Shown here in pieces: positions 716-25,256 of a stretch of 64,000 nt of DNA. The position numbers and the translations under genes are program-made. Source of the stretch: an uncultured bacterium (GTDB lineage: Bacteria > Acidobacteriota > Aminicenantia > UBA2199); contig CBFDCR010000012.1 in assembly GCA_965603365.1 (NCBI GenBank), positions 21,935-85,934 of the forward strand. Direction: 5' to 3'. Within the stretch, counting starts at the first letter, position 1. Each line of letters opens with the position of its first letter. A model generated the notes under the pieces. The model was not told where the DNA came from. It searched no databases and saw only the letters and a program-made list of their open reading frames with translations.

Positions 716-718
716 AAA

Positions 719-1609: not shown

Positions 1610-1615
1610 AGATCC

Positions 1616-2776
1616 ATGGAACAGGCAAGAACGACTTATCCTGGGGCTGTACGTCGTGATGTGAGTGGGGGCCATAATTGGAAGCCGAAACTAGTATGGA
1701 TTGGGCTGGGGGCCCTGGCGATTCTTTTGAACTACCTTTTCGAGTCGAGTCCCCATATCGTTGAATCGATCTACTCCCGGGGGATTTTCCAGGGGATTCG
1801 TTTCTGCTTAGACTATACCATAGGGTTACTTCCATTCCCCCTGGTTTACTTAATAGCTGCCGCATTGATACTTTTTTTAGTTGTAAAAATTGTCAGGCGG
1901 GTAAAAAAAGGGAAAATATTTAAAGAAGAGATCTCATGGCCGGCGCGGATCGTGAAAGGAGTATTGTCCTGGGCTGCCTTATTGGGGGCAATAGTATTTT
2001 TCTTCTATTTTTTCTGGGGATTCAATTACCAGCGCCTGCCTATAGAAAACCACTTAAAAATAAAGCCCGAACCCCTGGATATAGCTGGAATGAAGAGAGA
2101 GGCAGATATAGCGCTTCAAATGGTTGCGGCTGCCAGGAAAAATATCCAGGGAGCAGGAGAATACCCAATCGATTCTAATTTTTTACCAAAAGGACTCGAA
2201 AGTAAAATCCGAAAAAATCTAAAGAATGTGTTGATGTCTTTGGGATATCCGGCGGCTGGACGGGTTAGGGTACGCAAATTCAGCCCCTCCGGGTTTTTGA
2301 TGACTTTTGCCGTTAGCGGAATCTATCTCCCCTATACGGGAGAGGCATATATACCGGCAAATCTCACGGCAGTGGAATTACCCTTCACTATGGCCCATGA
2401 GATGGCACACGGATTCGGGTTTACAGAGGAGGGGACTGCCAATTTCCTGGCTTACCTGACATGTATTTTATCAAAAAACCCCCTGATACGGTATTCTGGG
2501 TGCATCGAATACTTTAACTACATCTCATTTGAGTTGTTTTTAGCCTCGCGCGAAGCCCACAAAGAGATGATGAAAAAACTGCCTCAAGGGGTTATTGCCG
2601 ACAGGAGAGCTATTTTTCGGAATTGGGGACGATACCGGGGTTGGCTCACAGATCTGGGACAAAAAGTCAATGATATTTACCTTAAAAGCCAGGGAATCAA
2701 AGAAGGTGTGAAAAGCTATAACCGGCTGATTATCCTGACCGCCGCCTGGAGAAGCGCGGCGCAGGATAGAATATAA
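1616..2776 (+). CDS. DUF3810-like membrane protein with HExxH zinc-protease motif
   Basis: N-terminal TM helices plus TMAHEMAHGFGFTEEGTANF (HEMAH). Start moved to ATG 1616 (in frame with track ORF 1589) because the promoter overlaps 1589. Confidence 0.65.
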   Translation: MEQARTTYPGAVRRDVSGGHNWKPKLVWIGLGALAILLNYLFESSPHIVESIYSRGIFQGIRFCLDYTIGLLPFPLVYLIAAALILFLVVKIVRRVKKGKIFKEEISWPARIVKGVLSWAALLGAIVFFFYFFWGFNYQRLPIENHLKIKPEPLDIAGMKREADIALQMVAAARKNIQGAGEYPIDSNFLPKGLESKIRKNLKNVLMSLGYPAAGRVRVRKFSPSGFLMTFAVSGIYLPYTGEAYIPANLTAVELPFTMAHEMAHGFGFTEEGTANFLAYLTCILSKNPLIRYSGCIEYFNYISFELFLASREAHKEMMKKLPQGVIADRRAIFRNWGRYRGWLTDLGQKVNDIYLKSQGIKEGVKSYNRLIILTAAWRSAAQDRI

Positions 2777-2822
2777 CCGGAAAGAGAAGATATATGAAAT
2801 ACTTACATAAGGGAGGTTAAGG

Positions 2823-3119
2823 ATGCAATTTATTGTTATAGCTTATGATGATGTTGACGAGCGGGCAATAGAAAGGAGATTGGCGGCTCGGGACGCCCAT
2901 TTAAAACAAGCTAAGGAAATGTTTGATAAGGGCAGATGGTTATATGCAGCGGGTATTTTGAACGATGATGGAAAGATGATCGGCTCAATGATAGTGTGTG
3001 ATTTTCCTTCCCGAAACGAGCTTGAAGAACAGTGGTTAAAAAATGAGCCTTACATTATCGGGAATGTATGGAAAAAGATTGAGGTGAACCGGGCGCAAGT
3101 AGCACCTTTTTTAAATTAA
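2823..3119 (+). CDS. YciI-family protein
   Basis: 98 aa with the YciI-like N-terminus MQFIVIAYDD...R...R..HL. SD AAGGGAGG lies upstream of the ATG. Confidence 0.65.
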   Translation: MQFIVIAYDDVDERAIERRLAARDAHLKQAKEMFDKGRWLYAAGILNDDGKMIGSMIVCDFPSRNELEEQWLKNEPYIIGNVWKKIEVNRAQVAPFLN

Positions 3120-3213
3120 TCGGTCAAATTGGACCATTTAATGCTCGGGACACCCATTAATTGGAGAAATCGAATTAAACGGGATTTTCAAAGGACAAAA
3201 AAAGTTGTATAAT

Positions 3214-4356
3214 ATGGCCATGATGGAGATTAAGACAGAAACGATCAGTCAATTGAAGGATGTGTTGAAAGATTTTGGCCGACCCGGGGCTACCATCGAC
3301 AGCCTGCAAGAGAAGATGGAGGCATCCAGGGAAAAGAGCGAGCGGAAATTGGCATTCCCGGCGGAATTAATCGATTTGCTGTTTGTCAGGATTTTAAAAT
3401 TCCCCGGACAACAAGGCCCGGGAAAAACCATATGGGCCGTCTATTTTCGCTATCAAAACATCGACTGCTCATTTAAACTGAAAAACATCGGCTTAAGGCT
3501 CTGCCTCCTGCCCGGTCGGGCCAATAAAGCGGACCTGAAGAAAACCGCCGAGGATATTATCGGGAAAACCACCGCGGCCTTGCTGCTGCTGGAACAGGAA
3601 TCATTGATCCCCCTGGGCAAACAGCACATAAAAAAGGGAAATTTCACCCTCGAAAATCAGTTTATAAAATTTTATGAGATGTATCGCTATTTCAGAGATC
3701 AGGCGAGGAAAATAAATGCCAAAATCAACAAAAAATCCCGGGAGGCAAAGAATATCGCCACCTTATTCAAGGAGACATCCCACCTGTCTCAGCAAAGCTT
3801 CTATAACTCCCTGGCCATGATGGATGCCTATTTCGGCGGCTTAGAGCAACTGTTGGTAATCGTATTACCCTTCCTTGACATCAACCTCAAATCACATGAC
3901 TTAGGGAAAATACTGGCAATGAGCTGGCAAGAAAAATTTCCCCGGGTCTTCGATATCCAGGCTAACCAGAAGGCTAGATTATTTTACGATCAGTTCATTT
4001 CACTGGAAGAAAAATTCCGCAATCTCTACGCCCACGGGGGATTTGAAAAAAAGGCTGCTTCTATCTATTGTCATGTTCCTGGGCTGGAGACAGTACCGGT
4101 GCAACTGCTGGGAACAGAACAAAAACTGGCTTTAAACTTCAACCAATTAGAGAAGGTCTTCTTTGAGGATGTATGCCGGCTGTTCGATGAGTTTGACGAG
4201 TGGCTGTTAACGGAAAAGGTCCGGTATGGGATCACCTATGCCCACAGCGGTTTAAGTGTCTCTTTCGATAAAAAATCCAGGACAAAATACCGGAAAGCGA
4301 TGGAATCGGAAGAGAGGTTCAATAAAATGATCAAGGCGCTGCCGGGTAGCAAATAG
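3214..4356 (+). CDS. hypothetical protein with HEPN-like RNxxxH motif
   Basis: Long ORF; first ATG at 3214 (the track starts at TTG 3205). No family recognised. FRNLYAHGG at nt 4018-4035 matches the R-N-x3-H HEPN active-site pattern. Confidence 0.45.
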   Translation: MAMMEIKTETISQLKDVLKDFGRPGATIDSLQEKMEASREKSERKLAFPAELIDLLFVRILKFPGQQGPGKTIWAVYFRYQNIDCSFKLKNIGLRLCLLPGRANKADLKKTAEDIIGKTTAALLLLEQESLIPLGKQHIKKGNFTLENQFIKFYEMYRYFRDQARKINAKINKKSREAKNIATLFKETSHLSQQSFYNSLAMMDAYFGGLEQLLVIVLPFLDINLKSHDLGKILAMSWQEKFPRVFDIQANQKARLFYDQFISLEEKFRNLYAHGGFEKKAASIYCHVPGLETVPVQLLGTEQKLALNFNQLEKVFFEDVCRLFDEFDEWLLTEKVRYGITYAHSGLSVSFDKKSRTKYRKAMESEERFNKMIKALPGSK

Positions 4357-5111: not shown

Positions 5112-6119
5112 CTACTTCCAGATGCCGGGGATCTGGGTCTGGCAGTTGCCGCATTGCCCATCCGTCATGTTGATCATCCTGGTATAATAACCGGCCCGCT
5201 CAACCAGCAGCGCGCCGCAGTTGTGGCAGTGGGTGTGATCCCACGCATCCCCCGAAATATTACCGCCGTAGAGGTAGCGAAGCCCCTTTACCTTTGCGGT
5301 TTCCAGGCAGTGAAAGATACTGCCGGTGGGGGTGATGGGCGCATCCGTTAATTTATATTGGGGAAAAAACCGGGACACATGCCAGGGGATATTCTCGTCC
5401 ACTCCCAGGATAAAGTCAATCAGTTGTTTGATCTCTTCCTCATCATCGTTTAAGCCGGGGATTAACAGGGTGGTTAACTCCACCCACACCCCACTCTCAT
5501 TCATCCTCTTGATGGTTTCCAGAACCGGTGCCAGCCTGGCACTGCTGTAGGTTTTGTAAAAATCCTCGGTGTAGGCTTTTAAATCAATATTGGCGGCATC
5601 GAGATAGGGCTCCATCGTGTCAAAGGACTCCCGACTCATATAGCCGTTGGTAACCATGACGTTTTTCAGGCCATTTTCCCTGGCAATCCTGGCGGTCTCC
5701 AGCATCAGCTCAAAGTAGATGGTGGGTTCCGAATAGGTATAGGCGATGGTTTTGGAGTTGTAGGTCAGCGCCTGCCGGACCAACTCTTCGGGAGATATCT
5801 TCTCGCCATATATCTGGTGTTCTCCCGTTACCATAGAGAGGGAGTGATTCTGACAGAAGGTGCACTTAAAATTGCAGCCCATGGCGGCAATCGAAAAAGA
5901 GGTGGATGCCGGCAGGCAGTGATACAGAGGCTTCTTTTCGATGGGATCGGGGTGGGTGGCCGCCACCTTATCGTAATTCAATGAGAATAATTCGCCCTTC
6001 ATATTTTTCCGGACCCGACACACCCCCAACTGGTCCTCTTTGATCACACAATGGTGGGCACAGACATGGCATCTAACCTTGTCTTGATCGATTTTCTCAT
6101 ACAACAGGGCTGGTTTCAT
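5112..6119 (-). CDS. AmmeMemoRadiSam-type radical SAM enzyme (PFL-activase-like)
   Basis: N-terminal Cys cluster CHVCAHHCVIKEDQLGVCRVRKN followed by the rSAM CNFKCTFCQN (CxxxCxxC). 335 aa, the typical length for this family. Confidence 0.75.
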   Translation of the reverse strand: MKPALLYEKIDQDKVRCHVCAHHCVIKEDQLGVCRVRKNMKGELFSLNYDKVAATHPDPIEKKPLYHCLPASTSFSIAAMGCNFKCTFCQNHSLSMVTGEHQIYGEKISPEELVRQALTYNSKTIAYTYSEPTIYFELMLETARIARENGLKNVMVTNGYMSRESFDTMEPYLDAANIDLKAYTEDFYKTYSSARLAPVLETIKRMNESGVWVELTTLLIPGLNDDEEEIKQLIDFILGVDENIPWHVSRFFPQYKLTDAPITPTGSIFHCLETAKVKGLRYLYGGNISGDAWDHTHCHNCGALLVERAGYYTRMINMTDGQCGNCQTQIPGIWK

Positions 6120-6710: not shown

Positions 6711-9113
6711 ATGACAGTAGAAATCGACATGCCCGAATTGCCGGAGATACCCGGATACAAGATAATAAGAGTATTGTCTGAAGGGGAGAAGGCCTCGGTT
6801 TGCCTGGGGAGCGGTGAAAAAACGAACCGGAAAGTAGCCATTAAAATCTTCGACCCCTTCAGCTTTGCGGATGAAAAATCTGCCGAGGCTTACTTTGAAC
6901 AGGTAAAAAAACTGTCGACCCTGGAACACCGGAATATCATTTCCGTTTTTGAGGCGGTTTGTCAGGATAAACTTCGCTATGTGGTGATGGAATACCTTGA
7001 GGGGAGCATAAAAGATAGACTTCTCGACCAGGCCCGGTCCGGCCAGCAGGAATTGGTAATAGAGAGCAATATCATAACCGAAGACCAGGCCGGGCAGATT
7101 GAAGATGCGGGAATCGCCTCAAAACCGATTACCCTCCTGGGGGCCCTGAGTATCGCCAAACAAATCGGGGGGGCATTAGATTACAGCCATCAGGCAGGCT
7201 TTTTACACCGCAATATTAACAGTGAAAACATCATGTTTCGCCAGGATGGCACACCGGTACTGATGAATTTTGGCATCATTCCGGAAACGGGCAGCGATAA
7301 AACCGAGGCGAAAGCCAGAATAACGGTGGGTACTCCCGATTTCATGAGTCCGGAACAGTGGCGAAAAGAAGAACTGGACGGCCGCAGCGATATCTACTCC
7401 CTGGGAGTGGTACTGTACGAAATGCTGACCGGTCATCTGCCTTACGAAGGGGATATGTCCGTCGGTGTGGTGGTCAAGCACCTGCAAGAGCCGGTACCCC
7501 CTTTGCCGGATCAGATAAAACAATATCAGACCTTGATTAACCGGACAATGGCCAAAAGGCCGAAAGACAGGGTGCAAAACGGTAAAGAACTGGGTGAGTT
7601 GATCGATTCTCTCCTCGATTCTCCTCAAAAATCCCTTGAAGAAGAGGCCGAAAGCTCTTCCCAGGTATTCCAGAGTGAACGGGAAATAGAGGACTACATA
7701 ATGCCCCAACGAGATCGTTTGGTGTCTTTCGGCTCCGAGGATATCGACGATACCGGTAAAGAAGAGGAGGGTTTGGATCGGCCGGGGATTCACGAGACTC
7801 CTGGATTTAGAAAGTCCCCGGCTGGCGAAAAACGGGGATTCATTGCCGAATTTTTTAGTGATCCGGCAAAACCGGCGCTGGTGGTGGTGATGATCTTCTT
7901 GCTGGGTTTAGCGGTCTACTTTCTGACCAAAACGTTTAAAAGAGAGGCAGTCCCACCTCCCCCTGCCGAGACACAACAGCAGTCAACCGTTAGCCAAAAA
8001 GCGGTACCCACCAAACCCAGAGAGAAAAAACCGACTCGGCCAACGAAGCAAGCCTCCCAACAAACGCTTCAGGATGAGGAATACCAAAAAAATTATCAAC
8101 AGGCAGAAGAATTATTTAACGCCCAGCAGTACGAGGCAGCGTCACAAATACTTGAAGTGGCCAAAAAGATTAAAAATTCAAAAGAAACAAAAAAACTTGA
8201 AAATAATATTCGGCAAGCTCAAAAGGAAAAAGATGAAAAGGATTTTCAACAATATTTTTCCATTGCCCAATCGGAGTTTCGGAGGGGGCGGTATGAAGAA
8301 GCCCAACAGAACCTTGAACTGGCCATAAAAATCAAAACCACCTATGAAGTAACCGAACTGGAGCAGCAGTTAACGTTCAAACTGAAAGAGTTGGAAGCAG
8401 GAAAGCAAGTGGAGGAAAAAAAGCGGCAGGCCACCGAAAGGCAAGACAACGAAACATTCCGGCGATCTTCGATCAGCAACACGACTATGAGCTATCAGGC
8501 CTACCTCAGGAAATTTCCCGACGGTCTTCACGCCCAGGAGGCCCGGAAACGGATCGAGACACTGAAGGGAGGAAGGCTGGCACCTCTTACAACAAAACAA
8601 ACAATGCCGGTGGGAACAGTAAAACTCAGGACAAAACCGAAGGCCCTGAACCCCGCCGAAGTGAAATCCATGCTGAAAAAATGGGGCTTTTTCGACAATC
8701 TGGACAACAAAACCGGTAATTTTCGCAATTCCTTCAGTGTGAAGATTATGGGTAGAGACCGGGTGGTATTGGACGAGGCAACCGGCCTGATGTGGCACAC
8801 AGGCGGCTCAAACGAATACATGAGTTTTGCCAAAGCCGAGGCCTGGGTAGACAAATTCAATCGTATGGGCTATGCCGGATTTACCGACTGGAGACTGCCA
8901 ACCTTAGAAGAGGGGGCCTCGCTGCTGGAGAATCAGAAGAGCGCCAACGGACTCTTTATCGATGCTGTTTTCTTTGGCCGACAGAGTTGGATTTGGACAG
9001 CCGATCCCTATGGTTCCGACGGTCGGTGGCTGGTACGCTTCGACAGTGGAGATGTCTACGGCCGTTCCGTTTTTGACAGCAATTATGTGCGGGTGGTCCG
9101 CTCCATCCAATAG
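6711..9113 (+). CDS. Hanks-type Ser/Thr kinase homologue (degenerate catalytic motifs), TM, coiled-coil/TPR-like region, C-terminal DUF1566 (Lcl C-terminal-like) domain
   Basis: KVAIKIF (VAIK) and GTPDFMSPEQ are present, but HRD is HRN (7206-7214) and DFG is NFG (7266-7274). TM helix ALVVVMIFLLGLAVYF. The C-terminus (GLMWHT...FTDWRLPTLEE...YVRVVRS) is typical of DUF1566. Confidence 0.8.
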   Translation: MTVEIDMPELPEIPGYKIIRVLSEGEKASVCLGSGEKTNRKVAIKIFDPFSFADEKSAEAYFEQVKKLSTLEHRNIISVFEAVCQDKLRYVVMEYLEGSIKDRLLDQARSGQQELVIESNIITEDQAGQIEDAGIASKPITLLGALSIAKQIGGALDYSHQAGFLHRNINSENIMFRQDGTPVLMNFGIIPETGSDKTEAKARITVGTPDFMSPEQWRKEELDGRSDIYSLGVVLYEMLTGHLPYEGDMSVGVVVKHLQEPVPPLPDQIKQYQTLINRTMAKRPKDRVQNGKELGELIDSLLDSPQKSLEEEAESSSQVFQSEREIEDYIMPQRDRLVSFGSEDIDDTGKEEEGLDRPGIHETPGFRKSPAGEKRGFIAEFFSDPAKPALVVVMIFLLGLAVYFLTKTFKREAVPPPPAETQQQSTVSQKAVPTKPREKKPTRPTKQASQQTLQDEEYQKNYQQAEELFNAQQYEAASQILEVAKKIKNSKETKKLENNIRQAQKEKDEKDFQQYFSIAQSEFRRGRYEEAQQNLELAIKIKTTYEVTELEQQLTFKLKELEAGKQVEEKKRQATERQDNETFRRSSISNTTMSYQAYLRKFPDGLHAQEARKRIETLKGGRLAPLTTKQTMPVGTVKLRTKPKALNPAEVKSMLKKWGFFDNLDNKTGNFRNSFSVKIMGRDRVVLDEATGLMWHTGGSNEYMSFAKAEAWVDKFNRMGYAGFTDWRLPTLEEGASLLENQKSANGLFIDAVFFGRQSWIWTADPYGSDGRWLVRFDSGDVYGRSVFDSNYVRVVRSIQ

Positions 9114-13107: not shown

Positions 13108-13136
13108 TTGACATTTTTGGATGGAATGGGTATAAA
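13108..13136 (+). promoter_or_regulatory. sigma70-like promoter (TTGACA-17 nt-TATAAA) upstream of precursor peptide 1
   Basis: TTGACA at 13108-13113 and TATAAA at 13131-13136, about 70 nt before ATG 13208. Confidence 0.45.
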
Positions 13137-13207
13137 TGTGGTGGTGAAATCGATTCGAGCTGAAGATACATTGTTGGCAGATATTAAATAAAAAAAGGAG
13201 ATATCCC

Positions 13208-13369
13208 ATGACAACCAGGAAATTTGACAAAAAATTGGTTCTGAACAAGAGAACCGTGTCCCACCTGGACAACAAAGAGATGAAAAACTTACATGGTGGG
13301 GCGAAAGTTACCCAAAGAGAAACACTATGCCCCCCCACCTGCCTTACCTGTAATTGGGAGTGTCTTTAA
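13208..13369 (+). CDS. RiPP-like precursor peptide 1 (double-glycine leader, 4-Cys core), 53 aa
   Basis: Own translation: MTTRKFDKKLVLNKRTVSHLDNKEMKNLHGG / AKVTQRETLCPPTCLTCNWECL. AGGAG lies 7 nt upstream. The leader is paralogous to those of 13399-13551 and 18794-19042. Confidence 0.75.
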   Translation: MTTRKFDKKLVLNKRTVSHLDNKEMKNLHGGAKVTQRETLCPPTCLTCNWECL

Positions 13370-13398
13370 AGCCGGTGAGTCTTTACAAGAAGGTAATC

Positions 13399-13551
13399 GT
13401 GAAGGCCAAAAAACTTAACAAAAAGCTGGTTTTGAACAAAAAGACCATGTCCAATCTGGACACAGAGGAGATGAACCGCATCCACGGCGGAAAATTCACC
13501 TTTGATTTCCCCACCTGTTACTACAGTTGCCATACCTGTTTCTGCCCGTAA
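13399..13551 (+). CDS. RiPP-like precursor peptide 2 (double-glycine leader, 4-Cys core), about 50 aa
   Basis: GTG 13399 gives (M)KAKKLNKKLVLNKKTMSNLDTEEMNRIHGG / KFTFDFPTCYYSCHTCFCP. Start chosen by alignment with peptides 1 and 3. The track shows a TTG-extended 65-aa ORF from 13354. Confidence 0.7.
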   Translation: MKAKKLNKKLVLNKKTMSNLDTEEMNRIHGGKFTFDFPTCYYSCHTCFCP

Positions 13552-13613: not shown

Positions 13614-15494
13614 TTAGCCTTTAAGCAGATTTAGCAGGCCGGTGGTGAGGAAGGGGAGGTAGGTGATGAGCAGCACCGATGCCAGTTGGATGAAGAAGAA
13701 GGGCAGTACATCCTTGTAGATCTTAGCCATGGGTTCATTGAAACGGTAGGAAGCCAGGAACAGATTGAGCCCCACCGGTGGGGTCAGGTAGCCCAGTTCC
13801 ATGTTGGCCAGGAAGATGATGCCCAGGTGTACCGGGTGGATGCCGAAGATGTTGGCCAGCGGGATGATGAGGGGCACCACCACCATGATGGCGGAAAAGA
13901 TGTCCATGAAACAGCCGGTAATCAGCAAGGCCACATTGAGGAAGAGCAGGAATACGTATTTTGAGCTGATGGTGGCCTTGACCCAGGCGGTGAGCTGCAT
14001 GGGCACCTGGGCATCCACGATGAAGTAAGAGAGTCCCTTGGCTAAGGCCAGGATGGACAGCACCCCGCCAATAATGGGCAGGCATTTTAACAGTACCCCG
14101 GATAGGTCTCTGAGTTTCAGATCCCGGTGCACGATAAACTCGATGACAAAGGAATAGACGACAGCCAGGGCCGCACTCTCCACTATGGTGGTGAGTCCGC
14201 CAAAATAACTCACCAGGATCACCACCGGCAGTAAAATTTCCCAGATGGATTCCCGAACCGCGCTTAGAGCCTCTTTCAGATTGAAAGGTTCACGTTCTAC
14301 CTTGTTTCTGCTGGCGTAAATAATACCGAAGATGATCAGGGCCAGGACCATCACAAAACCCGGTATAATGCCGCCGACGAACATGTCTTTGATACTCACC
14401 CCCGCGGCTACCCCGTAGATGATAATGGGCAGACTGGGGGGGAACAGCAGCCCGATGCTGCCGGAAGCCGTTAATAGGCCGATACCGAAGCGGCGCCTGT
14501 ATTTACCCTGGATCAATACATAGGAGAGAAGACCTCCCAACGCCAGGATGGTCACCCCTGAGGCGCCGGTAAAGGTGGTAAAAAACGTACAGACCAGGAT
14601 GGCCATGATGGCTAAGCCGCCGGGAAACCAGGAAAAAAACGATTTAAACAGCCGGACCAGCCGTTCGCCGGCCTTACTTTCCGACAGGATGAAGCCGGCC
14701 ACCGTAAACAGGGGAATGGCGGGGATCGAGTGGCTGATGAGCATGGCATAGGCTTCGTTGGGGATGACCTCCAGGGGTTGCCCCATTCTGGCAAAGAGCA
14801 TGTAGGCAACACCCCCCAGCACCACGAAGATCGGTGTGCCGAATATGGCCGAGACGATCAATATGATGATTATGGGCACGGCGATCGCCCCGTTGACGGC
14901 GTGAAAAGCCTCCACCAATGGAAAGGTAAATGCCGGTACTGTATCGGTGAGCGCGCTCAGGATATTGACAATGGGTTCGAGGGCCAGCAGGGTGCCCAGC
15001 AGGAGGCCCAGGCTGGCAAAGAGTTTGTTCATGCCTTTTTTTTCCAGTCTGGTGACGAAGCGAATCGCCATCACCCCGTAACCAAAGACCATGACCGTGG
15101 CGATGAGCTGGATGGAGATCTTGCCGATTTTATTGGCCGGATCGAAACCGTTGAGAACCAGGGAGAGGGAACTCCAGGCCAAGGCGGTGGTAATCATGGC
15201 CGACAGCAGCGCCAGCCCGGTTTTGATCCAGGTCTTTAAGGGTTCCGGTGTTTTCAATTCTAAGGATAACGAGAGGTGTTTGCCCTCCCGGGAGGTAATC
15301 ATGCCGCCGATAAAGGTGATGACTAAGACCAGGTGGTGGGTATACTCGGTAGAACCGGCCACACCGGTGTGGAAAAATTTACGGGCAATGACTTCCATGA
15401 AGGGAAACATGGCGATCAGGAAGATGAATATATAAGCCAGCAGGTTCTCTAACTTCTGTAAATAGAGAAAAATATTTTTAATTTTTATTTTCAT
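13614..15494 (-). CDS. TRAP transporter fused small/large permease (DctQ-DctM fusion)
   Basis: 626-aa polytopic membrane protein. The N-terminal ~160 aa are DctQ-like and the rest DctM-like. Downstream of the SBP gene with a 17-nt overlap. Confidence 0.8.
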   Translation of the reverse strand: MKIKIKNIFLYLQKLENLLAYIFIFLIAMFPFMEVIARKFFHTGVAGSTEYTHHLVLVITFIGGMITSREGKHLSLSLELKTPEPLKTWIKTGLALLSAMITTALAWSSLSLVLNGFDPANKIGKISIQLIATVMVFGYGVMAIRFVTRLEKKGMNKLFASLGLLLGTLLALEPIVNILSALTDTVPAFTFPLVEAFHAVNGAIAVPIIIILIVSAIFGTPIFVVLGGVAYMLFARMGQPLEVIPNEAYAMLISHSIPAIPLFTVAGFILSESKAGERLVRLFKSFFSWFPGGLAIMAILVCTFFTTFTGASGVTILALGGLLSYVLIQGKYRRRFGIGLLTASGSIGLLFPPSLPIIIYGVAAGVSIKDMFVGGIIPGFVMVLALIIFGIIYASRNKVEREPFNLKEALSAVRESIWEILLPVVILVSYFGGLTTIVESAALAVVYSFVIEFIVHRDLKLRDLSGVLLKCLPIIGGVLSILALAKGLSYFIVDAQVPMQLTAWVKATISSKYVFLLFLNVALLITGCFMDIFSAIMVVVPLIIPLANIFGIHPVHLGIIFLANMELGYLTPPVGLNLFLASYRFNEPMAKIYKDVLPFFFIQLASVLLITYLPFLTTGLLNLLKG

Positions 15495-16488
15495 GCAGCT
15501 TTCGGTATTCTTCCAGATAACCGTTTACCTTCTCATAGATCTCTTTAGAAAAGGCTTTACCCACCAGTACGTCCATTCCTTTGAACGACTCGGACCTCCA
15601 GGCGGAAACTGCGTCTTCCGTGACTTCGTGAATTTTTAGACCGTTTTCGATCATGGTGTCGATGGCCTCTTTCTCCAGTTGACCGATTTCCCCGGATAAT
15701 TTTTTTTGAAGTCTCCGGGTAACCGCCAGCATTTCCTCTCTATACTTTTCGGGGATGCGCTGCCAGACCCGCTGGGAGAGCACGATGCCGCCCACTAAGG
15801 GGGCGATTTTAAGAGAACTCATATGGGGGGCCAGGCTGAAATATTGACCCGAGGCGGCTATCAGGGGCGGGAGGTAAAAGGCATTGACCATGCCGCTCTG
15901 CAAGGCCATCATCAGATCCTTTAAATTCTGAGGTACCACCTGGTAGCCCGATTTCTTCCAGGCCTGCTCCATCCGGGGTTCACCGGTGGTGAAGGATATC
16001 TTGTACTTCCGCATATCTTTGGGGTATAATACCGGTTTCTCGGTGAAGAAGTTGATCCAGCCGGATTTGGTCCAGATAATCAGCTTAAATCCCTTGCCCT
16101 CGATTTCCTTCTCAAATTGAGGTATCAATCGCTCTAACACATAGTCGAGCTCCGCTTCGGAGTTGAACAACAGGGGAATATTCAATACGTACATTTCCTG
16201 GTATAATTTGATGAGGCCCCAATTGGTCAGGGCAGCGCCTCCCAGGATACCCATCCTCATTTTGCGGATGGTATCTTCTTCGTTTCCGGCAATACCGCCG
16301 GGATATATCTTGATTTTGACTGTGCCGTTGGTGATCCGGGCCCACTCTCTGCCCAGCTCTTCCATGGCCTTGTCCCAGGGCGACCGGTCAGGGGCAATGC
16401 TGCCGAGTTTGATGGTCAAGCCCAGGGCAGATAGGCTGAAAAGCATTATAATCAACAGGAAAAAAAAAATGGTTTTGTTTATTTTCAT
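15478..16488 (-). CDS. TRAP transporter substrate-binding protein (DctP family)
   Basis: Signal peptide plus a DctP-like fold sequence (GSIAPDRSPWDKA...). Lies between the TatT-like and permease genes. Confidence 0.75.
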   Translation of the reverse strand: MKINKTIFFFLLIIMLFSLSALGLTIKLGSIAPDRSPWDKAMEELGREWARITNGTVKIKIYPGGIAGNEEDTIRKMRMGILGGAALTNWGLIKLYQEMYVLNIPLLFNSEAELDYVLERLIPQFEKEIEGKGFKLIIWTKSGWINFFTEKPVLYPKDMRKYKISFTTGEPRMEQAWKKSGYQVVPQNLKDLMMALQSGMVNAFYLPPLIAASGQYFSLAPHMSSLKIAPLVGGIVLSQRVWQRIPEKYREEMLAVTRRLQKKLSGEIGQLEKEAIDTMIENGLKIHEVTEDAVSAWRSESFKGMDVLVGKAFSKEIYEKVNGYLEEYRKLHENKN

Positions 16489-17468
16489 TTAAAACCTTCC
16501 TCCTCATGGCAATTTGTATCGTCGTCCGATTGATCGGCATCGTACTCTATAAAGTAATCCCCCACATGCTTCAGCAAGAAGCAGGCCTTGCGGCGGTTGA
16601 TGGTGTGGAGCAGCCGGTTTTCCGGATCAGTGTCCGGATCGATTTTTAAAACCTTTTCCAGCAGTTGTTTAAATTGAGCCAGATCCTGCTCCTTGACACA
16701 CACGGTGGTGGCCAGGGAGAGATATGCGGAAGTCGATTTTTCCCCCGAGGCATCTACGGCCGATTTGAAGTGCTGCCGGGCTTTGTTAAAATCTCCCCCC
16801 ATGTATTCGGGCATGGACCCGTAGTATAACACATAGAAATCGTGGAGGGCCCCCTGGTTAAAGGCAGGATCGAGTTCCAGCACCTTATCCATCATGGCCC
16901 TGGCCCGGGGTACCGTAATGCCCAGTTTCATGTCGAAGGGATCGATGGCAAAAGCACCCAGCCAGCCGGCGGCCGCCCAATAGAGCAGGGACACATCGTC
17001 TTTTTTCATATCTGCCAATGCTGCTTCATATTTCTTTTCATCCAGGGCCTTGCGGAAACCGGGGTGTTTGTGCTCCAGCCCATCCAGCAGGATGTCCCGG
17101 CCCCTCAAGTATAAATTCCTGGCCCGATTGTACATGAATTCCTGTTTTTTGTACTCTTCTTCGGAGAGCATGCTGGCGGGGGTCTGGATAAAGGCATTGG
17201 CGTACATGACATATAGACTGCCGATTCTTAACTGTAGACCCTCGTGACCCGGCACTGAGACCATCAGGCTTTCGTACATCTTGATGGCAAAGGGCAGGGC
17301 ATCGCCCACCAGTTCGGGGTCGTTATCGCCGGTAAAAACCGTACTCGATCCCGGTGCGGAAAGCATATCCGCCACCTTTTTAGTGGCCATTTTAGTGATG
17401 GAGCAGCCGCCGCTTAAGATGAGCAGCACCGGAATAACGATAAAAATAAGCATTCCTTTCCTTTTCAT
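16485..17468 (-). CDS. TatT-like TPR lipoprotein of a TPR-protein-associated TRAP transporter
   Basis: Lipobox LILSGGCS and a helical TPR-like body. The gene order T component, SBP, fused QM matches the Treponema TatT/TatP/TatQM arrangement. Confidence 0.6.
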   Translation of the reverse strand: MKRKGMLIFIVIPVLLILSGGCSITKMATKKVADMLSAPGSSTVFTGDNDPELVGDALPFAIKMYESLMVSVPGHEGLQLRIGSLYVMYANAFIQTPASMLSEEEYKKQEFMYNRARNLYLRGRDILLDGLEHKHPGFRKALDEKKYEAALADMKKDDVSLLYWAAAGWLGAFAIDPFDMKLGITVPRARAMMDKVLELDPAFNQGALHDFYVLYYGSMPEYMGGDFNKARQHFKSAVDASGEKSTSAYLSLATTVCVKEQDLAQFKQLLEKVLKIDPDTDPENRLLHTINRRKACFLLKHVGDYFIEYDADQSDDDTNCHEEEGFK

Positions 17469-17789: not shown

Positions 17790-18092
17790 ATGATCAAAAA
17801 AGGTCTTATATTCATACTTTTCTTGTTACTGGTCGTCTTTGTTTCCTGCCGGGACAAATCTCTGGCAAATGAAGCTAAGATTGGGGAGAATATCCGCAGT
17901 GCCGTTGAACTGTTTCAAGCCGCGCCGGCCCGGGCGGTAGAGGGGCAAGAGAATCCGGCGGGAAAGGGTTTTAAATTACTCCTGGAGGCCGTGACGCTGA
18001 CCCTGCCGGATACGGATTTTCCCGATGAAGTGAAGGAGAAGATTCTGCTGGCCCGCCAGAAATTCCAGGCTGTTCCTGACATCTTTAAATAA
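17790..18092 (+). CDS. small lipoprotein; the reading frame continues after one in-frame TAA to 18308
   Basis: Signal/lipobox LLLVVFVSC, SD GAGGGAGG. ORF 18120-18308 is in the same frame, separated only by TAA 18090-18092. Confidence 0.5.
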   Translation: MIKKGLIFILFLLLVVFVSCRDKSLANEAKIGENIRSAVELFQAAPARAVEGQENPAGKGFKLLLEAVTLTLPDTDFPDEVKEKILLARQKFQAVPDIFK

Positions 18093-18433: not shown

Positions 18434-18685
18434 GGTAACCCACAACATTTTGTCGGTACAACGTCTCATTTTGCCGGTACATTACGACAAAACGGCGGTA
18501 CAACACGACAAAGTGGCGGTACAATGTGACATTTGTCCGGTACAATGCGATATTTTTATGGTCCGCGTGATATCTTTGCGGTACAACATGACAGAATGCC
18601 GGTACAATACGATATATTTCCCGTCCCCACGACATTTTACCGGAACAACACCCCATTTTGGCGTTACCACACGCCATATTGAAGG
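18434..18685. repeat. degenerate tandem array A, about 11 units of 21 bp (consensus CGGTACAAYRYGACAWWWTGN)
   Basis: Units start at 18454, 18475, 18496, 18517, 18538, 18579, 18600 and so on. The region is open in several frames on both strands, as expected for a stop-free repeat. Confidence 0.75.
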
Positions 18686-19581: not shown

Positions 19582-19926
19582 TTTGAGGAACCCAAAATAG
19601 TAATAAGACAAACATCAGATAAAATTGTAGCAACATACGATGAAAAACAATTTTATGCCCTGAACAATGTAATTATTTTAAAACTTAATCATAATATAGA
19701 TCTTAATTACAAATTCATTCTCTGATTTCATCAAAGAAATCAAAAATCAAAAGACATCCCTCTCCAAGAAAGAAGAATTTGACTTAATGGGTCTATTTGA
19801 AGAACAAAAGTCCAACACCCTGACCCTCCAAAAGGAAATTGACCAGGTCGACAGAGAAATCGACCAGATGGTATATCAATTATACGGGCTGACCGACCAG
19901 GAGATTAAGATCGTAGAGGAGTCATA
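19582..19926 (+). pseudogene. remnant of the C-terminus of a type IIG / Eco57I-like restriction-modification enzyme (frameshifted, 5'-truncated)
   Basis: Own translation, frame A 19582-19725: FEEPKIVIRQTSDKIVATYDEKQFYALNNVIILKLN... (TaqI-like specificity-domain pattern). Frame B 19727-19926: ...LQKEIDQVDREIDQMVYQLYGLTDQEIKIVEES* (typical C-terminal tail of these enzymes). Confidence 0.6.
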
Positions 19927-19972
19927 ACGCAATTTTCGGTTGTCCCCTATTTTTCGTCCCGAAGTGTCCGTT

Positions 19973-20311
19973 TCCGGACAAAATTTCTCTGATGTCAGAG
20001 AAAATCTTTCCGACGTCAGATAAAATTTCTCCGATGCCGGACAAAATTCTTCCGATGCCAGACAAAATCTTTCTGATGTCAGACAAAATTTCTCCGATGC
20101 CAGATAAAATTTCTCTGACGCCAGACAAAATCTTTCTGATGTCAGACAAAATTTCTCCGATGCCAGACAAAATCTTTCCGACGTCAGACAAAATTTCTCC
20201 GATGCCAGACGAAATTCCTCTGATGCCAGACAAAATCTTTCTGATGATGTCAGACAAAATTTCTCCGATGCCAGACAAATTTTGTCCGATAACGGACACC
20301 ATTTATCCGTC
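19973..20311. repeat. tandem array B, 16 units of 21 bp (G[TC]CAGACAAAAT[CT]T[TC]TC[CT]GA[TC]) with 42-bp alternation
   Basis: Units counted by hand from 19973 (one 24-bp unit at 20225). Alternating variants are GTCAGACAAAATTTCTCCGAT and GCCAGACAAAATCTTTCTGAT. Confidence 0.9.
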
Positions 20312-20387
20312 GTCGTCGAGTAACATTTACTCGTGGTTGGCAATCACCTCTTAGCAATAACTACTTGAGGATGCCGCCTCAATGCTC

Positions 20388-20421: not shown

Positions 20422-21471
20422 ATGATAGAAAAGAGGGTTCCGTGCATTGAGGAGTGGGAGGTATTGCCCAAAGCTGGGGCGTTTTATAAGAGAGTCACTG
20501 TGTTTATCCTGTTTGCGGTATTACTTCACTGTGCCTTTTATGCCAGCCAGGTGGATTTGCCGGAAGTATTGGCCCCTGCCTCTATCCATGTATACGGCGG
20601 CCGAATGTTCATTGCCGAAGCCGCGGCCATTCACATTTACTCGTTGAAGGACTTTAAACAGATAAAGCAATTTGGTCGGCAGGGTACGGGGCCGGGTGAG
20701 TTTTTCCGGGATACCAGACTCACCGTTTTCCCGGAGAGACTCGTGGTAAACACCTTTGGAAAACTGATCTTTTTTTCCCATGATGGCCTGTTGATGGAAG
20801 AGCACAAAAAAGCCGTTGAAATTATGTGGATATATCCGGTTGGCGATTGTTTTGTGGGGTCTGAGTTTGTACCCAGGGTTCAGAAAATCAACATCTATGA
20901 TGGAAATTTTCATCGTGTAAAAAATATCTTCGAGGGCTCGATCGGCTGGGTCTCATATTTCGAGAGCGGAACCGCAAAACAGGACCTCATTATGGTCAAG
21001 GATTACGCTGCACCGCATGTTTATAAAGATAAGATCTATATTTTTGATTCATCGAAGGGTTTCTTCTTTGCTGTTTTTGACAGCAGTGGAAAGAAGATTT
21101 TTGAGAAGAACATAGAGTATAAACCGCCGAAGGTCAGCGCCGACTACAAGAAGGAGAGGTTGAGACGGCTGGAAGAATCCCCCTGGTTCAAGAGTAGCAA
21201 AGATAGGTTTAATCCTGTATTCCCCGATTTCTTCCCTCCATACCGGTCGGTACGAATTTCAGATGACAGGATATACTTCGTTACTTATCTAAACATCGAC
21301 AATAAAGATGAAGTCGTCGTCACCGATTTAGAGGGCAATCTCATAAAGAAAACGTACATCCCCGCCACCCTTTACGACAAATACATCTTTACCATCAGCG
21401 GCAATAAGGTATACTCTCTAATTGAAGACGACAAAGAAGAATTATGGCAATTACTCATAGGAGATTTATAG
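20422..21471 (+). CDS. six-bladed beta-propeller-like exported protein (paralogue of 29758-30759)
   Basis: FGRQGTGPGEF motif and repeated beta-strand pattern; hydrophobic N-terminal segment VTVFILFAVLLHCAFYA. An alternative start is TTG 20464, preceded by GGAGTGGGAGG. Confidence 0.6.
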   Translation: MIEKRVPCIEEWEVLPKAGAFYKRVTVFILFAVLLHCAFYASQVDLPEVLAPASIHVYGGRMFIAEAAAIHIYSLKDFKQIKQFGRQGTGPGEFFRDTRLTVFPERLVVNTFGKLIFFSHDGLLMEEHKKAVEIMWIYPVGDCFVGSEFVPRVQKINIYDGNFHRVKNIFEGSIGWVSYFESGTAKQDLIMVKDYAAPHVYKDKIYIFDSSKGFFFAVFDSSGKKIFEKNIEYKPPKVSADYKKERLRRLEESPWFKSSKDRFNPVFPDFFPPYRSVRISDDRIYFVTYLNIDNKDEVVVTDLEGNLIKKTYIPATLYDKYIFTISGNKVYSLIEDDKEELWQLLIGDL

Positions 21472-21487: not shown

Positions 21488-21673
21488 ATGATAAAAAATT
21501 TCTTTGGAGGAGTTGAAGAGCCGATGACCCCGGAGTCGGTTACCCTGGGTTGTGGTTGTTGGTGCAGTTGCGAAGGGGCCTGTGGCGATCAAAACGGCAA
21601 TAGTACCAGCATGACTGATTTGAATTGCTCACCGTTTCCTAAAGTTGCAATTATTTTGCCACCCCCAGCTTAA
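21488..21673 (+). CDS. Cys-rich small peptide, candidate rSAM/SPASM substrate
   Basis: MIKNFFGGVEEPMTPESVTLGCGCWCSCEGACGDQNGNSTSMTDLNCSPFPKVAIILPPPA. Strong SD AAAGGAGG 5 nt upstream. Lies 51 nt upstream of the rSAM/SPASM gene. Confidence 0.6.
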   Translation: MIKNFFGGVEEPMTPESVTLGCGCWCSCEGACGDQNGNSTSMTDLNCSPFPKVAIILPPPA

Positions 21674-21724: not shown

Positions 21725-23311
21725 ATGCCACCACATCATATGAAAGTACTGGAAAGCAAAAATAAAGATAATGCTGACCCTCAGATTTGGGCCAAACTCT
21801 TTGAAATTAACGAGAAAAGATATTGTTACGATGTGGGGACTAACCATATTATGGAAGTTGATGATGTCTTGTATGAGGTCTTGAAAAAATACAATTATTC
21901 CAATAAAAAGAGGATAGCCGCAGATTTGTCATCCAGATATTCGGTTGAGGATATTGAAAGAGCGGTTGGCGCGGTGGACGAATTCAGCCAGGCCAAAGGG
22001 GGATTTATACTTCAAAAAAGGATTCGTCTGGCGTTTCCTTTCAGCCAGCGTGAATATAAGTTTCTTCTGGAACATTTTCTCAGTCATCTGATTTTGAATA
22101 TTACAGAAGACTGCAATTTACGTTGTAAATACTGTGCGTTCAGTGGGAGTTATAAATATAGAAGGACTCACAAAAAAGTTTCGATGCCATGGCCGGTTAT
22201 TCAGAAGGCAGTTGATTTCTTTATCCCCCGAACCGTTTTGAGGATAAATGAATTAAAGAGGCCTGTGTCTTTTGGCTTTTATGGAGGAGAGCCCCTATTG
22301 GAGCCAGGGAAAATGTTCAAAACGGTGGAATACGTTCGGCACAGATGGCCGGATATTTTCCCTGAGATTAATTTTGCCATCACCACAAATGGGACTTTGC
22401 TTTCCCGAGAAATAATTGACCCATTAATAAAGTATAATTTTGGGATTACTATAAGTCTGGATGGTTACAAGGAGTTACACGATAAGAGCCGCATTTTTAT
22501 GAAGGGAGGGGGAACGTACGACATAATAATGAAAAACATTGATTTAATTAAAAAAATTGACCGTGAGTATTTCAGACAAAGAGTATTTTTTGCTGGGGCC
22601 ATGTCCCCCCCATATGATCTTCACGGAATACTTGAATATTTTCGCAGGGAGTTCCCAAACCAGGAGATCCCAAATGTGTATAGCCTGGTGGATGAATTTG
22701 ACACCGATTTTTTCGATAATTTCGATATGGATGAAGAGAATAGAAAATATGCACAGCAATCCTTTGAAGCCAGATGTGAATTTATAAAGAAAAAAATGGA
22801 AGGTGAGGATGATCCCATATTATCTGGTTTTATTCAAGATAATACAATGGACATCCATAACAGGAAACTTTTCAGTCTCCCGGAAGCGACATATCCCAAT
22901 GGTTGTTGCCCCCCAGGATTAAAAAAACTTTTTGTGGACACGGAAGGAAGATTTCATGTATGTGAGAGGGTGAATTCATATTTTAGCATTGGAGATCTGG
23001 ATAATGGATTTGATATCCCCAAAATATTCGATCTAATAGACGGATACTCAAAAGCAGCCGATCACTGGAAATATTGCTGGGCGATCAGGTTTTGCAACTC
23101 TTGTTTTGTCTCCGTTATTGAGGGCGATCATTTCTCAAGGGAGAGAAAAAAGACAATGTGTGAGAGAACAAAAGGCGACATCTTAAGTCGGCTGGTTACG
23201 TATGTCTATCTGGCGGAGCATAATCCCCGACTATTTGATAAAAAGTATTTCAGAGGGGAAGATACGGTGGGGGATCTGGTAAAATACCTCCAGCAGAATA
23301 AGTTACATTAA
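21725..23311 (+). CDS. radical SAM/SPASM-type peptide-modifying enzyme
   Basis: ITEDCNLRCKYCAF (CxxxCxxC), FYGGEPLL, and a C-terminal Cys cluster (CCPPG...GRFHVCERV...CWAIRFCNSC) like the SPASM auxiliary-cluster domain. About 100-aa N-terminal extension. Confidence 0.8.
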   Translation: MPPHHMKVLESKNKDNADPQIWAKLFEINEKRYCYDVGTNHIMEVDDVLYEVLKKYNYSNKKRIAADLSSRYSVEDIERAVGAVDEFSQAKGGFILQKRIRLAFPFSQREYKFLLEHFLSHLILNITEDCNLRCKYCAFSGSYKYRRTHKKVSMPWPVIQKAVDFFIPRTVLRINELKRPVSFGFYGGEPLLEPGKMFKTVEYVRHRWPDIFPEINFAITTNGTLLSREIIDPLIKYNFGITISLDGYKELHDKSRIFMKGGGTYDIIMKNIDLIKKIDREYFRQRVFFAGAMSPPYDLHGILEYFRREFPNQEIPNVYSLVDEFDTDFFDNFDMDEENRKYAQQSFEARCEFIKKKMEGEDDPILSGFIQDNTMDIHNRKLFSLPEATYPNGCCPPGLKKLFVDTEGRFHVCERVNSYFSIGDLDNGFDIPKIFDLIDGYSKAADHWKYCWAIRFCNSCFVSVIEGDHFSRERKKTMCERTKGDILSRLVTYVYLAEHNPRLFDKKYFRGEDTVGDLVKYLQQNKLH

Positions 23312-23375
23312 TCGTGAATCCCGAAATAACGATCAATAGATCTCAAAATCATAGAATAGTTTAAAGAGGTTGACG

Positions 23376-25256
23376 ATGCCCAAAGATGGGATAAAACGAA
23401 TAGTGATGCATTGGATGCCGCCGGCAATGATTACGACCCCTTCCCTTTCCTACTCTATATTAAAAAGTTTCATGAATCAGCATGGGTATGATAGCGAGAT
23501 TATTTATTGGAATCAGTTGATATTTAAAATCATGAGACCATTCTTTTATGGTGGGAGGCTTCAAGATTCTGCTGTAGACAATTTATTTCTTGCACCCTTT
23601 TTATTGGAGATTTCGGATAAGTACAGTGACACCCTTAAAAAGAAAAGGGTTTTATCTTTTTTGCGGAGTAATTTATTGAAATTTACAATCAAGGAGGATG
23701 AAGTCGAAGAATATATTTGGGATATTAGGGGAAAAATCGGGCGCTTAGTGGATTCCATTCTGGCTGAGATGGAGGCCGAGAATATTTTCCTGTTCGGATT
23801 TTCCAGTAAATTTTTTCAATGGCTCCCCGGCATGTTACTGGCGGAAAAGTTAAAAGAAAAGTTCCCCGGGATTAAAATAGTAATTGGCGGGTTTGGAGAT
23901 CAGAACGCAGCCCGAGAAATACTTCACCTGTGTCGATATTTTGATTTTGCCGTGTGGGGGGAGGGGGAATATCCACTTCTCGGACTCTGCCAGCGATTGG
24001 AAGATGGTGGCAATCGTTTCGAGTCGATCCCCCGGTTGTTATATTGGGGGCAAGGGGAGGAGATTAAGGCCACCTCATCCCGCAGCCGCTATTTAAATTT
24101 TGATAACTATATGTATCCTGACTTTTCAGATTTTATCGAATCTTATAACAATGAAGAATTGAGAAAAAATATTTACTTTCCCATTGAATCCTCCAGGGGC
24201 TGCCACTGGAACCGCTGTAAATTTTGTACTTTGAATGTGGGGTATAAATACAGAACCCGATCCCCCGAAAGTATTGTTCGGGAGATTGAATTTATGTTTG
24301 ATAAACATAAAATACACCGTTTTCGATTTGCAGACAACGATATTGTGGGAAAGAGCATAGGGCAGTTTGAAAGATTACTGGAGATGGTCACTGCATCATC
24401 ATTGAGAAATCGGGTCAAGTATGACCTCTATGCAGAGATTGTCCACCACGGATTCAATTCCCGGCTTATAAAAAAAATGGCAGTCGCGGGTTTTACCCAC
24501 GTTCAGATCGGCTACGAAGCCATTACCGATGGCTTGTTGAAAAAGATTGATAAAAAAGCAGATTTCGCCGATCATATCCTTTTTGTAAAATTCGCTTCAA
24601 AATATGGAATTTCTATAACCGGAGCCAACATCTTACGGGGGATTATCGGCGAGACCGAAGACGACGTTCTGGAAGGTATTCATGATTTGACATTTCTAAG
24701 ATTCTTTTTAAAAGATGCACCTATTCAGTTTTATCATTATATAAGTGAGCTGCGACTTTCTGGAGGGAGCCGGTTTTTCCAGATGTTGAGCCTGGAAGAG
24801 CGTAAAAAATGGAACGCTAGCGCCATGACTTATTTTATCCCCCAGTGGTTCATCGTGAAAGATAACGATCGACGTTTTGGGCTGTTTTCCTTTTCCAGGG
24901 AGTTGGATAATAAAGTCGAATGGGAAAATTTTGAAAAGTTAAATAACTTTCTCGAAAAAACCGAGGTAACGTATCAAATACTTGAAAATAACGGGATTTA
25001 TTATTACAGTGAATTCATGGCCGGGAAGCGGGTGAATTATATCGTGTTCGATGAACCGGAATATTGGCAGGTATTAAAAGCTGCCAACAACGAGGTAAAA
25101 TCTTTTAAAGAAATATTCGCCGAAGTCAAGACAAAATTCCCCGGTATTATCGAAAAATATCTGGTTGAGATTATTGAAAAACTAAAAAATGATTTTTTGA
25201 TTTACTCCAACAAAGATTTAACGAGAATTGTATCAGTCATGGACACCGGTGAATAG
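23376..25256 (+). CDS. B12-binding-domain radical SAM protein (RiPP-maturation rSAM type)
   Basis: N-terminal Rossmann-like region, then ESSRGCHWNRCKFCTL (CxxxCxxC variant typical of class B rSAM). ATG 23376 follows AAGAGG; the track starts at TTG 23370. Confidence 0.75.
   Translation: MPKDGIKRIVMHWMPPAMITTPSLSYSILKSFMNQHGYDSEIIYWNQLIFKIMRPFFYGGRLQDSAVDNLFLAPFLLEISDKYSDTLKKKRVLSFLRSNLLKFTIKEDEVEEYIWDIRGKIGRLVDSILAEMEAENIFLFGFSSKFFQWLPGMLLAEKLKEKFPGIKIVIGGFGDQNAAREILHLCRYFDFAVWGEGEYPLLGLCQRLEDGGNRFESIPRLLYWGQGEEIKATSSRSRYLNFDNYMYPDFSDFIESYNNEELRKNIYFPIESSRGCHWNRCKFCTLNVGYKYRTRSPESIVREIEFMFDKHKIHRFRFADNDIVGKSIGQFERLLEMVTASSLRNRVKYDLYAEIVHHGFNSRLIKKMAVAGFTHVQIGYEAITDGLLKKIDKKADFADHILFVKFASKYGISITGANILRGIIGETEDDVLEGIHDLTFLRFFLKDAPIQFYHYISELRLSGGSRFFQMLSLEERKKWNASAMTYFIPQWFIVKDNDRRFGLFSFSRELDNKVEWENFEKLNNFLEKTEVTYQILENNGIYYYSEFMAGKRVNYIVFDEPEYWQVLKAANNEVKSFKEIFAEVKTKFPGIIEKYLVEIIEKLKNDFLIYSNKDLTRIVSVMDTGE

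Follow-up and report, generated by a model that had tools for sequence, protein, structure and literature searches.

Three small genes with a Bacteroidetes-type double-glycine leader, likely lanthipeptide precursors, without adjacent maturation genes in 64 kb of bacterial DNA

Class I lanthipeptide precursors (LanAs) of Bacteroidetes carry an LxLxKx5L motif in their leader, which often ends in Gly-Gly, and are accompanied in their clusters by a C39 protease (Walker et al. 2020, PMC7268733). Many prochlorosin precursors, by comparison, are encoded far from their modifying enzyme (PMC7268733). A further type of double-glycine-leader peptide, the GG-Bacteroidales radical-SAM-modified RiPPs (ribosomally synthesised and post-translationally modified peptides; SAM, S-adenosylmethionine) of TIGR04149, goes with a cassette of TIGR04148 plus TIGR04150, usually together with a bacteriocin exporter (PMC4573289). 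Here we analyse three small genes, pep1, pep2 and pep3, in a 64-kb stretch of DNA from an uncultured bacterium (contig CBFDCR010000012.1), the whole of which we call the window. By sequence comparison, the three peptides are members of the NF038153/PF28317 leader family (LxLxKx5L...GG), and codon and homologue data indicate that they are genuine genes under protein-level selection. They are likely, not proven, lanthipeptides. The leader family itself is already curated and published, and pep1 has been annotated automatically, which makes pep1-3 further members of it. What appears unusual is the context, namely dispersed orphan precursors with a Bacteroidetes-type leader in genomes that seem to be Aminicenantes-like.

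Membership of the family rests on the curated leader models. On the NCBIfam model NF038153 ('lant_leader_L1a, class I lanthipeptide'; cut-off 22 bits), pep1, pep2 and pep3 score 36.4, 40.1 and 44.5 bits, all above the cut-off. Curated models match at E 4e-9 and 3e-10, and precomputed Pfam matches place PF28317 (Lant_leader_dom) on pep1 and pep2. The motif residues L10-x-L12-x-K14-x5-L20 and the closing G30-G31 are present in 3/3 peptides. These data support the type of RiPP precursor that had been proposed on first reading, in which the double-glycine leader is conserved while the Cys-rich cores diverge. The first-pass annotation had likened the leader to TIGR04149 (cut-off 25 bits), with which these peptides do share a homologous leader region, a Gly-Gly end and Cys-rich cores. 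Pep2 is the only one above the cut-off (31.4 bits); pep1 falls 0.2 bits short (24.8), and pep3 clearly fails (17.4). All three score higher on NF038153, and NF038153/PF28317 is the family that fits first. A model of the TIGR01847 type (double-glycine bacteriocin signal, cut-off 15.7 bits), also suggested at that stage, missed its threshold when run: pep2 reached 10.8 bits and pep1 was unmatched at E <= 10. Nor was the locus hidden from annotation as had been thought, given that JGI labels pep1 'natural product precursor'.

A leader hidden Markov model (HMM) made from pep1 and pep2 and run on all six frames of the window matched three segments (E 5.5e-23, 7.1e-22 and 1.8e-13), with the next best match at E 0.85. 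What had been described as a tandem pair is instead a trio, pep3 having been overlooked. For pep1 and pep2, translation returned the 53 and 50 residues first reported, the latter from the GTG codon at 13399, and our recount of the leaders gave the same 18 identical positions out of 31. The reading frame of pep2 spans 13354-13551 (+) and has this GTG inside it. We place the start there because the resulting N-terminus, MKAKKLNKKL, matches that of relatives in the family alignment, which start alike with MKAKK(L/F)xKKL (e.g. P0007), and because pep2 has been called independently, as a gene of 50 aa with PF28317, in a related metagenome locus, L003. The pep1 product is identical on the metagenome contigs L001-L003 and bears PF28317. 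A Shine-Dalgarno (SD) sequence of their own had been claimed for the pair, which is true of pep1 (AGGAG), whereas pep2 has a weak GAAGG only. The putative promoter-like site upstream of pep1 is absent from the list of our consensus scan, whose -10 rule demands a T at position 6, and strain L003 differs from the window at 13113. We claim no intrinsic terminator after pep2, where the hairpin was no better than shuffles (z 0.29).

A large protein collection contained 69 relatives, nearly all with PF28317, whose consensus leader reads MKTKKFSKKLVLNKKTIANL..E...GG and whose cores are very diverse and Cys/Thr-rich. The pep1 orthologue P0002 is 62% identical overall, with the core RETLCPPTC[L/Y]TCNWECL almost unchanged. 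Comparing the codons of the two genes gave proportions of synonymous and non-synonymous differences of 0.81 (pS) and 0.22 (pN), respectively, and hence a pN/pS of 0.27 (leader 0.29, core 0.23) at near-saturated synonymous sites. Because pN/pS is this low while pS is 0.81, it is the protein rather than the DNA that is conserved. This answers the worry raised in the first-pass annotation that related genomes might keep the DNA alone and not the small open reading frames (ORFs). Among strains L001-L003 (98.3-99% identity), the single base change within the pep1/pep2 ORFs is synonymous. The subfamily of pep3 has ten members, whose cores all keep 7 Cys and 8 Thr unchanged. No viral relatives were found in IMG/VR. 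Genome and metagenome scans together with contig look-ups yielded 52 loci with such precursors, of which 37 are non-redundant; in five loci (L033, L036, L041, L044 and L046) the machinery was surveyed by tblastn only.

In class I lanthipeptides, the formation of (methyl)lanthionines needs a Ser or Thr for each Cys, N-terminal to it. The cores of pep1 and pep2 hold four Cys each, the first three in a common CxxxCxxC spacing, and four Ser+Thr each, while the 51-aa core of pep3 combines 8 Cys with 10 Thr and contains no Ser. We extended the analysis to 87 unique cores of the non-Bacteroidota and metagenomic set, which are related sequences and not independent samples, making the following statistics indicative only. 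The prevailing residues in these cores are Cys (15.8%), Thr (15.3%) and Pro (10.7%). Ser+Thr equal or outnumber Cys in 86/87 cores, as compared to 59.5 +/- 2.8 under a pooled-composition null (reached by 0/2000 shuffles), and the two counts correlate with r = 0.93. The coupling also has a direction: Ser/Thr are enriched four and five residues N-terminal to Cys (z +5.0 and +6.7) and depleted four and five residues C-terminal to it (z -5.4 and -4.6). Cys counts are even in 34 cores and odd in 53, with no bias toward even numbers. Since an even bias is lacking and the Ser/Thr-Cys coupling is directional, a chemistry of disulfides only is disfavoured, and the core composition appears to fit lanthionine formation better.

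Combining leader and core, we consider pep1-3 to be genuine LxLxKx5L...GG precursors and, on balance, most probably thioether-bridged lanthipeptides that are matured in trans. Each gene would yield a prepeptide of 50-82 aa. Its 31-residue leader should serve as a handle for the modifying enzymes and for an ATP-binding cassette (ABC) exporter with a C39 peptidase, and would be cut off after Gly-Gly31. The Cys/Thr-rich core would be cross-linked by thioethers, most probably (methyl)lanthionines, which would arise by dehydration of Thr/Ser and subsequent addition of Cys. Action in trans is proposed since the genes for the enzymes and the exporter do not accompany those of the peptides; both would have to work from another part of the genome, in the way that a distant synthetase serves the dispersed prochlorosin precursors. 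The chemistry, the cleavage site and the trans-acting maturase and exporter are all what we infer from these data. We file the peptides as likely lanthipeptides and no more, because adjacent LanB/LanC and a peptidase-containing ABC transporter (PCAT) were looked for and not found locally.

Besides the relatedness of the cores, several observations weigh against lanthipeptide maturation in trans. Neither Pfam annotation of those large ORFs that we examined nor a tblastn search of the whole window with LanB/LanC of two Bacteroidota loci (L012/L014) detected a LanB or LanC, and tblastn found no C39/ABC homologue that could represent the PCAT. The sole ABC ATPase found in the window (2-715) has a CbiQ-like protein as its partner. 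LanB, LanC and the C39 transporter were likewise not found by Pfam and tblastn in 17 non-Bacteroidota loci of at least 10 kb, and the trans-acting lanthipeptide system is assumed rather than seen. The leader alone is not diagnostic of the chemistry, as TIGR04149 cross-matches it, and in locus L005 a peptide of the NF038153 type has a true TIGR04148/TIGR04150 cassette 1 kb away. Finally, Thr often stands directly beside Cys (TC dipeptide z = 5), where it cannot itself form a ring.

The Bacteroidota loci illustrate what a complete system looks like. In all three control loci (L012, L014 and L016), LanB and LanC lie beside the precursors, and the Chitinophagaceae metagenome-assembled genome (MAG) and Pedobacter terrae loci also have a C39 ABC transporter with HlyD. 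The precursors of this group resemble pep1-3 in the leader HMM score above cut-off, the exact LxLxKx5L motif and the Gly-Gly end, in their Cys- and Thr/Ser-rich cores, and in the occurrence of several, often tandem, paralogues per genome. They differ in having LanB/LanC next to them, whereas none lies within 64 kb here. Chitinophaga pinensis, from which pinensins were isolated, has about 17 tandem precursors at L014, with cores of the SDSFxACGSCF type that are unrelated to those of pep1-3. The prochlorosins (ProcA/ProcM) offer a parallel for the dispersed arrangement, with many precursors that combine a conserved leader and hypervariable cores; the window has three such genes at two sites. Prochlorosins, however, occur in marine cyanobacteria, their leader is of the Nif11 type and their enzyme is a class II LanM, whereas pep1-3 have a class I-type leader and their synthetase was not located, and we therefore regard the resemblance as a functional analogy and not as homology.

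The named genomes with such precursors comprise a Candidatus Aminicenantes MAG, a Candidatus Deferrimicrobium MAG, the Chitinophagaceae MAG, Chitinophaga pinensis and Pedobacter terrae. The 8 precursors of this Aminicenantes MAG are distributed over four separate loci, and arrays of 3-5 precursors occur in L004, L006 and L007. LanB, LanC and the C39 transporter were absent from 33 other non-redundant non-Bacteroidota loci; L043, a 1.3-kb contig of unclear origin, carries a LanC-like fragment. When the neighbouring ORFs of the 37 non-redundant loci were clustered without bias, no candidate maturase common to them emerged. Recurrent neighbours other than LanB, LanC and ABC exporters comprised XRE-type helix-turn-helix (HTH) proteins, PIN toxins, peptidase C69, AAA_14/DUF4143 and Reg_prop sensor kinases. 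As for the host of the window, SD-like motifs precede 26/47 of its ORFs (background 13%), and the genomes that match it most closely are MAGs of Aminicenantes and Deferrimicrobium. In Bacteroidota, the use of SD sequences is rare. Because of the frequent SD motifs and of these matches, the host is probably not a member of the Bacteroidota. In the literature searched, we found no mention of Aminicenantes together with lanthipeptides.

Table 1. Positions of the precursor genes, their parts and signals, and the radical SAM cluster in the window
Feature	Position	Strand	Description
pep1	13208-13369	+	ATG start; 53 aa, MTTRKFDKKLVLNKRTVSHLDNKEMKNLHGGAKVTQRETLCPPTCLTCNWECL
pep1 leader	13208-13300	+	31 aa, Gly-Gly end
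pep1 core	13301-13366	+	AKVTQRETLCPPTCLTCNWECL; stop codon after
pep2	13399-13551	+	GTG start; 50 aa, (M)KAKKLNKKLVLNKKTMSNLDTEEMNRIHGGKFTFDFPTCYYSCHTCFCP
pep2 leader	13399-13491	+	
pep2 core	13492-13548	+	KFTFDFPTCYYSCHTCFCP; stop codon after
pep3	19042-18794	-	82 aa; GGAGG Shine-Dalgarno upstream
pep3 leader	19042-18950	-	
pep3 core	18949-18797	-	
Shine-Dalgarno AGGAG	13196-13200	+	7 nt 5' of the pep1 ATG
Promoter-like TTGACA-17 nt-TATAAA	13108-13136	+	Upstream of pep1; read from the sequence, putative
61-aa Cys-rich ORF	21488-21673	+	Core GCGCWCSCEGACG; AGGAGG Shine-Dalgarno; stops 52 nt short of the SPASM gene
SPASM radical SAM peptide maturase	21725-23311	+	Best match CcpM TIGR04068, 314.8 bits (cut-off 500)
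B12-radical SAM C-methyltransferase-like	23370-25256	+	TIGR03975 197.4 (cut-off 281.85)
Thioesterase	25348-26100	+	PF00975, 116 bits

The alternative that survives best is that pep1-3 are TIGR04149-like radical-SAM-modified RiPPs and substrates of the radical SAM cluster at 21.7-26.1 kb, which we judge unlikely, if worth serious attention. The SPASM enzyme would then install Cys thioethers of the sacti- or ranthipeptide kind, the B12-radical SAM enzyme would methylate carbon, and the protein with the thioesterase fold would be an accessory or a protease. Distance speaks for this possibility, as the SPASM gene starts 2.7 kb from pep3 and 8.2 kb downstream of pep1/pep2, in agreement with the roughly 8 kb first reported. 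So do the TIGR04149 scores of pep2 (above cut-off) and pep1 (borderline), the presence of a TIGR03975-like B12-radical SAM gene both in the window and about 1 kb from a precursor in L033, and the failure to find lanthipeptide enzymes nearby in the window or the non-Bacteroidota loci. Moreover, P0056, a peptide of the NF038153 type, lies about 1 kb upstream of the cassette in L005 (9121-14401), which is genuine (TIGR04148 498.7 bits, TIGR04150 373.2 bits).

The identity of the enzymes argues the other way. The radical SAM genes of the cluster are not the TIGR04148/TIGR04150 pair that goes with TIGR04149: the SPASM enzyme of the window reaches only 150.8 bits on TIGR04148 (cut-off 300), is CcpM-like, and has no TIGR04150 partner anywhere in the window. 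All enzymes of this RiPP-type cluster score below their equivalog cut-offs, and its link to pep1-3 is at most putative. It also has a Cys-rich ORF of its own immediately upstream, which we regard as plausibly its precursor. This candidate, unmatched by NCBIfam models, shares a CxCxC...G motif with the precursors beside the L005 cassette, and both its core and its leader are unlike those of pep1-3. CcpM (TIGR04068) and other SPASM sacti- or ranthipeptide systems thus resemble the window in having such an enzyme 2.7-8 kb from Cys-rich peptides, but here the enzyme is below the cut-off, an adjacent candidate precursor is present, and pep1-3 carry a Gly-Gly leader of another family. Linkage is rare in addition: only 3/17 non-Bacteroidota loci of at least 10 kb have a RiPP-type radical SAM gene, such genes lie near precursors in the window, L005 and L033, and none of the radical SAM kind was found within 10 kb of the close relatives of pep3 in L004 and L008. 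Between pep1/pep2 and the cluster runs an operon on the opposite strand, encoding a tripartite ATP-independent periplasmic (TRAP) transporter. Known ranthipeptides have the Cys donor ahead of the acceptor, as in CxxxD motifs. The depletion of Ser/Thr at +4/+5 after Cys is opposite to this donor-then-acceptor order, from which we infer that the cores do not follow known ranthipeptide motifs.

In L005, the three precursors adjacent to the cassette have the leader LIKLSKNQLDEVKAGA and CGCSCYY... cores, and NCBIfam models do not match them; two NF038153-like peptides flank the cassette upstream. In the window, paralogous TolB-like/DUF5128-like beta-propellers at 20422-21471 and 29758-30879 (-) flank the radical SAM cluster (25% identity, E 2e-33).

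It is quite improbable, in our estimate, that pep1-3 escape enzymatic cross-linking altogether and are class II-like bacteriocins or signals with disulfides only, exported by a distant C39 transporter. The absence of a recurrent maturase next to the precursors in the 37 non-redundant loci would suit such peptides, as would the even Cys counts of the window cores (4, 4 and 8) and a thioredoxin gene 7 kb upstream. In the family as a whole, however, odd Cys counts prevail over even ones, and disulfides leave the Ser/Thr-Cys coupling and its N-to-C directionality unexplained. The bacteriocin leader model TIGR01847 was missed, a C39 transporter is not found nearby either, and the thioredoxin gene adjoins a housekeeping AmmeMemoRadiSam radical SAM gene. 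The notion that pep1-3 are chance or non-functional ORFs of an intergenic region, which could appeal to their shortness, the GTG start and weak SD of pep2 and the non-significant hairpin behind it, is effectively refuted already by the curated HMM matches above cut-off, the 69 homologues, the low pN/pS at near-saturated synonymous sites, the mere three leader HMM matches in six frames and the Cys and Thr positions kept across the pep3 subfamily.

The neighbourhood of the precursors agrees with the first reading in having no adjacent maturase. As also reported there, pep1/pep2 are convergent with the TRAP operon, which we delimit as a TRAP-TAtT operon at 13614-17468 with DctQM (13614-15494, -), DctP and TAtT. 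Upstream lie housekeeping genes, including those for an AmmeMemoRadiSam radical SAM protein, the thioredoxin (beside the former and about 7 kb from pep1/pep2), a Ser/Thr kinase and dCMP deaminase. Three sets of genes were considered as maturation enzymes and rejected. The radical SAM gene at 5112-6119 (-), 7 kb upstream, is an AmmeMemoRadiSam enzyme above cut-off and not a RiPP maturase. The 800-aa Ser/Thr kinase at 6711-9113, examined as a class III/IV-type synthetase, is a Hanks kinase with Lcl_C and without a LanC or lyase domain; in the other annotated loci no kinases occur near the precursors, which also counts against this idea. The 1129-aa and 386-aa ORFs at 52.7-57.3 kb, examined as LanB/LanC, proved by Pfam to be a fusion of B12-binding, MeaB and methylmalonyl-CoA mutase domains and a RhuM protein, respectively. 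Among known RNA families, the window contains one tRNA only, far from the peptides.

The gene for pep3 lies between the TRAP-TAtT operon and a repeat-rich stretch, which holds a 21-nt tandem array at 19977-20290 (14.8 copies, 79% matches). This repeat is open in several frames on both strands and thereby produces spurious Cys-repeat ORFs, e.g. 19876-20343 (-). A second, short 21-nt array is located nearby at 18475-18525. Between the operon and pep3, the ORF at 17790-18092 encodes 100 aa, whereas the matching gene call in L001 and L002 is at least 159 aa long, in a 7.5-kb alignment with one indel; a frameshift or assembly error in the window may account for the difference. In L004, a Memo-family gene (7721-8875) stands directly upstream of three tandem precursors, a possibly coincidental parallel to the AmmeMemoRadiSam gene of the window. 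Genes for an acyl-CoA dehydrogenase and a DUF6125 protein lie upstream of that for the 1129-aa fusion protein (52748-56137; MeaB being a GTPase), which we take to be IcmF-like. At 47528-50317, the window encodes a 929-aa protein with a NACHT NTPase and a C-terminal FGE-sulfatase domain.

Among the genes near precursors in other loci, one for an XRE-type HTH protein (about 145 aa) is found in five non-redundant loci (L006, L020, L022, L036 and L048), with PF12844/PF01381 in L006, L020 and L022, for which precomputed Pfam matches were available; it is possible that this protein is a dedicated regulator of the precursors. On a Candidatus Deferrimicrobium contig, L013, a protein-arginine deiminase (PF03068; 170-1852, -) lies about 0.4 kb from a precursor. 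In the Aminicenantes MAG locus L010, an ORF of the nonribosomal peptide synthetase type (TubC_N docking plus Condensation; 562-4140, -) lies about 6 kb from one.

A broader proposal, which we put forward tentatively and ourselves regard as doubtful, is that non-Bacteroidota, namely Aminicenantes-like sediment bacteria, keep a large dispersed repertoire of LxLxKx5L-GG precursors without adjacent LanB/LanC/PCAT, served either by one highly promiscuous, distant class I system, analogous to that of the prochlorosins, or by cross-linking enzymes not yet recognised as lanthipeptide machinery. Genome mining with cluster-based tools, for which a LanC or a radical SAM gene must stand only a few genes away, would miss such orphans. 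For these, the Ser/Thr-Cys stoichiometry and the directionality test provide a cheap guess at the chemistry that needs nothing but the precursor sequences. Should the host genomes prove to be without the canonical enzymes, the peptides would hint at a novel chemistry of maturation. If, in turn, pep1-3 are matured in trans, the host and its relatives would be a source of unexplored thioether peptides, with three distinct cores in the window and dozens more in related loci from metagenomes, and a leader type held to be a speciality of Bacteroidetes would extend to other phyla.

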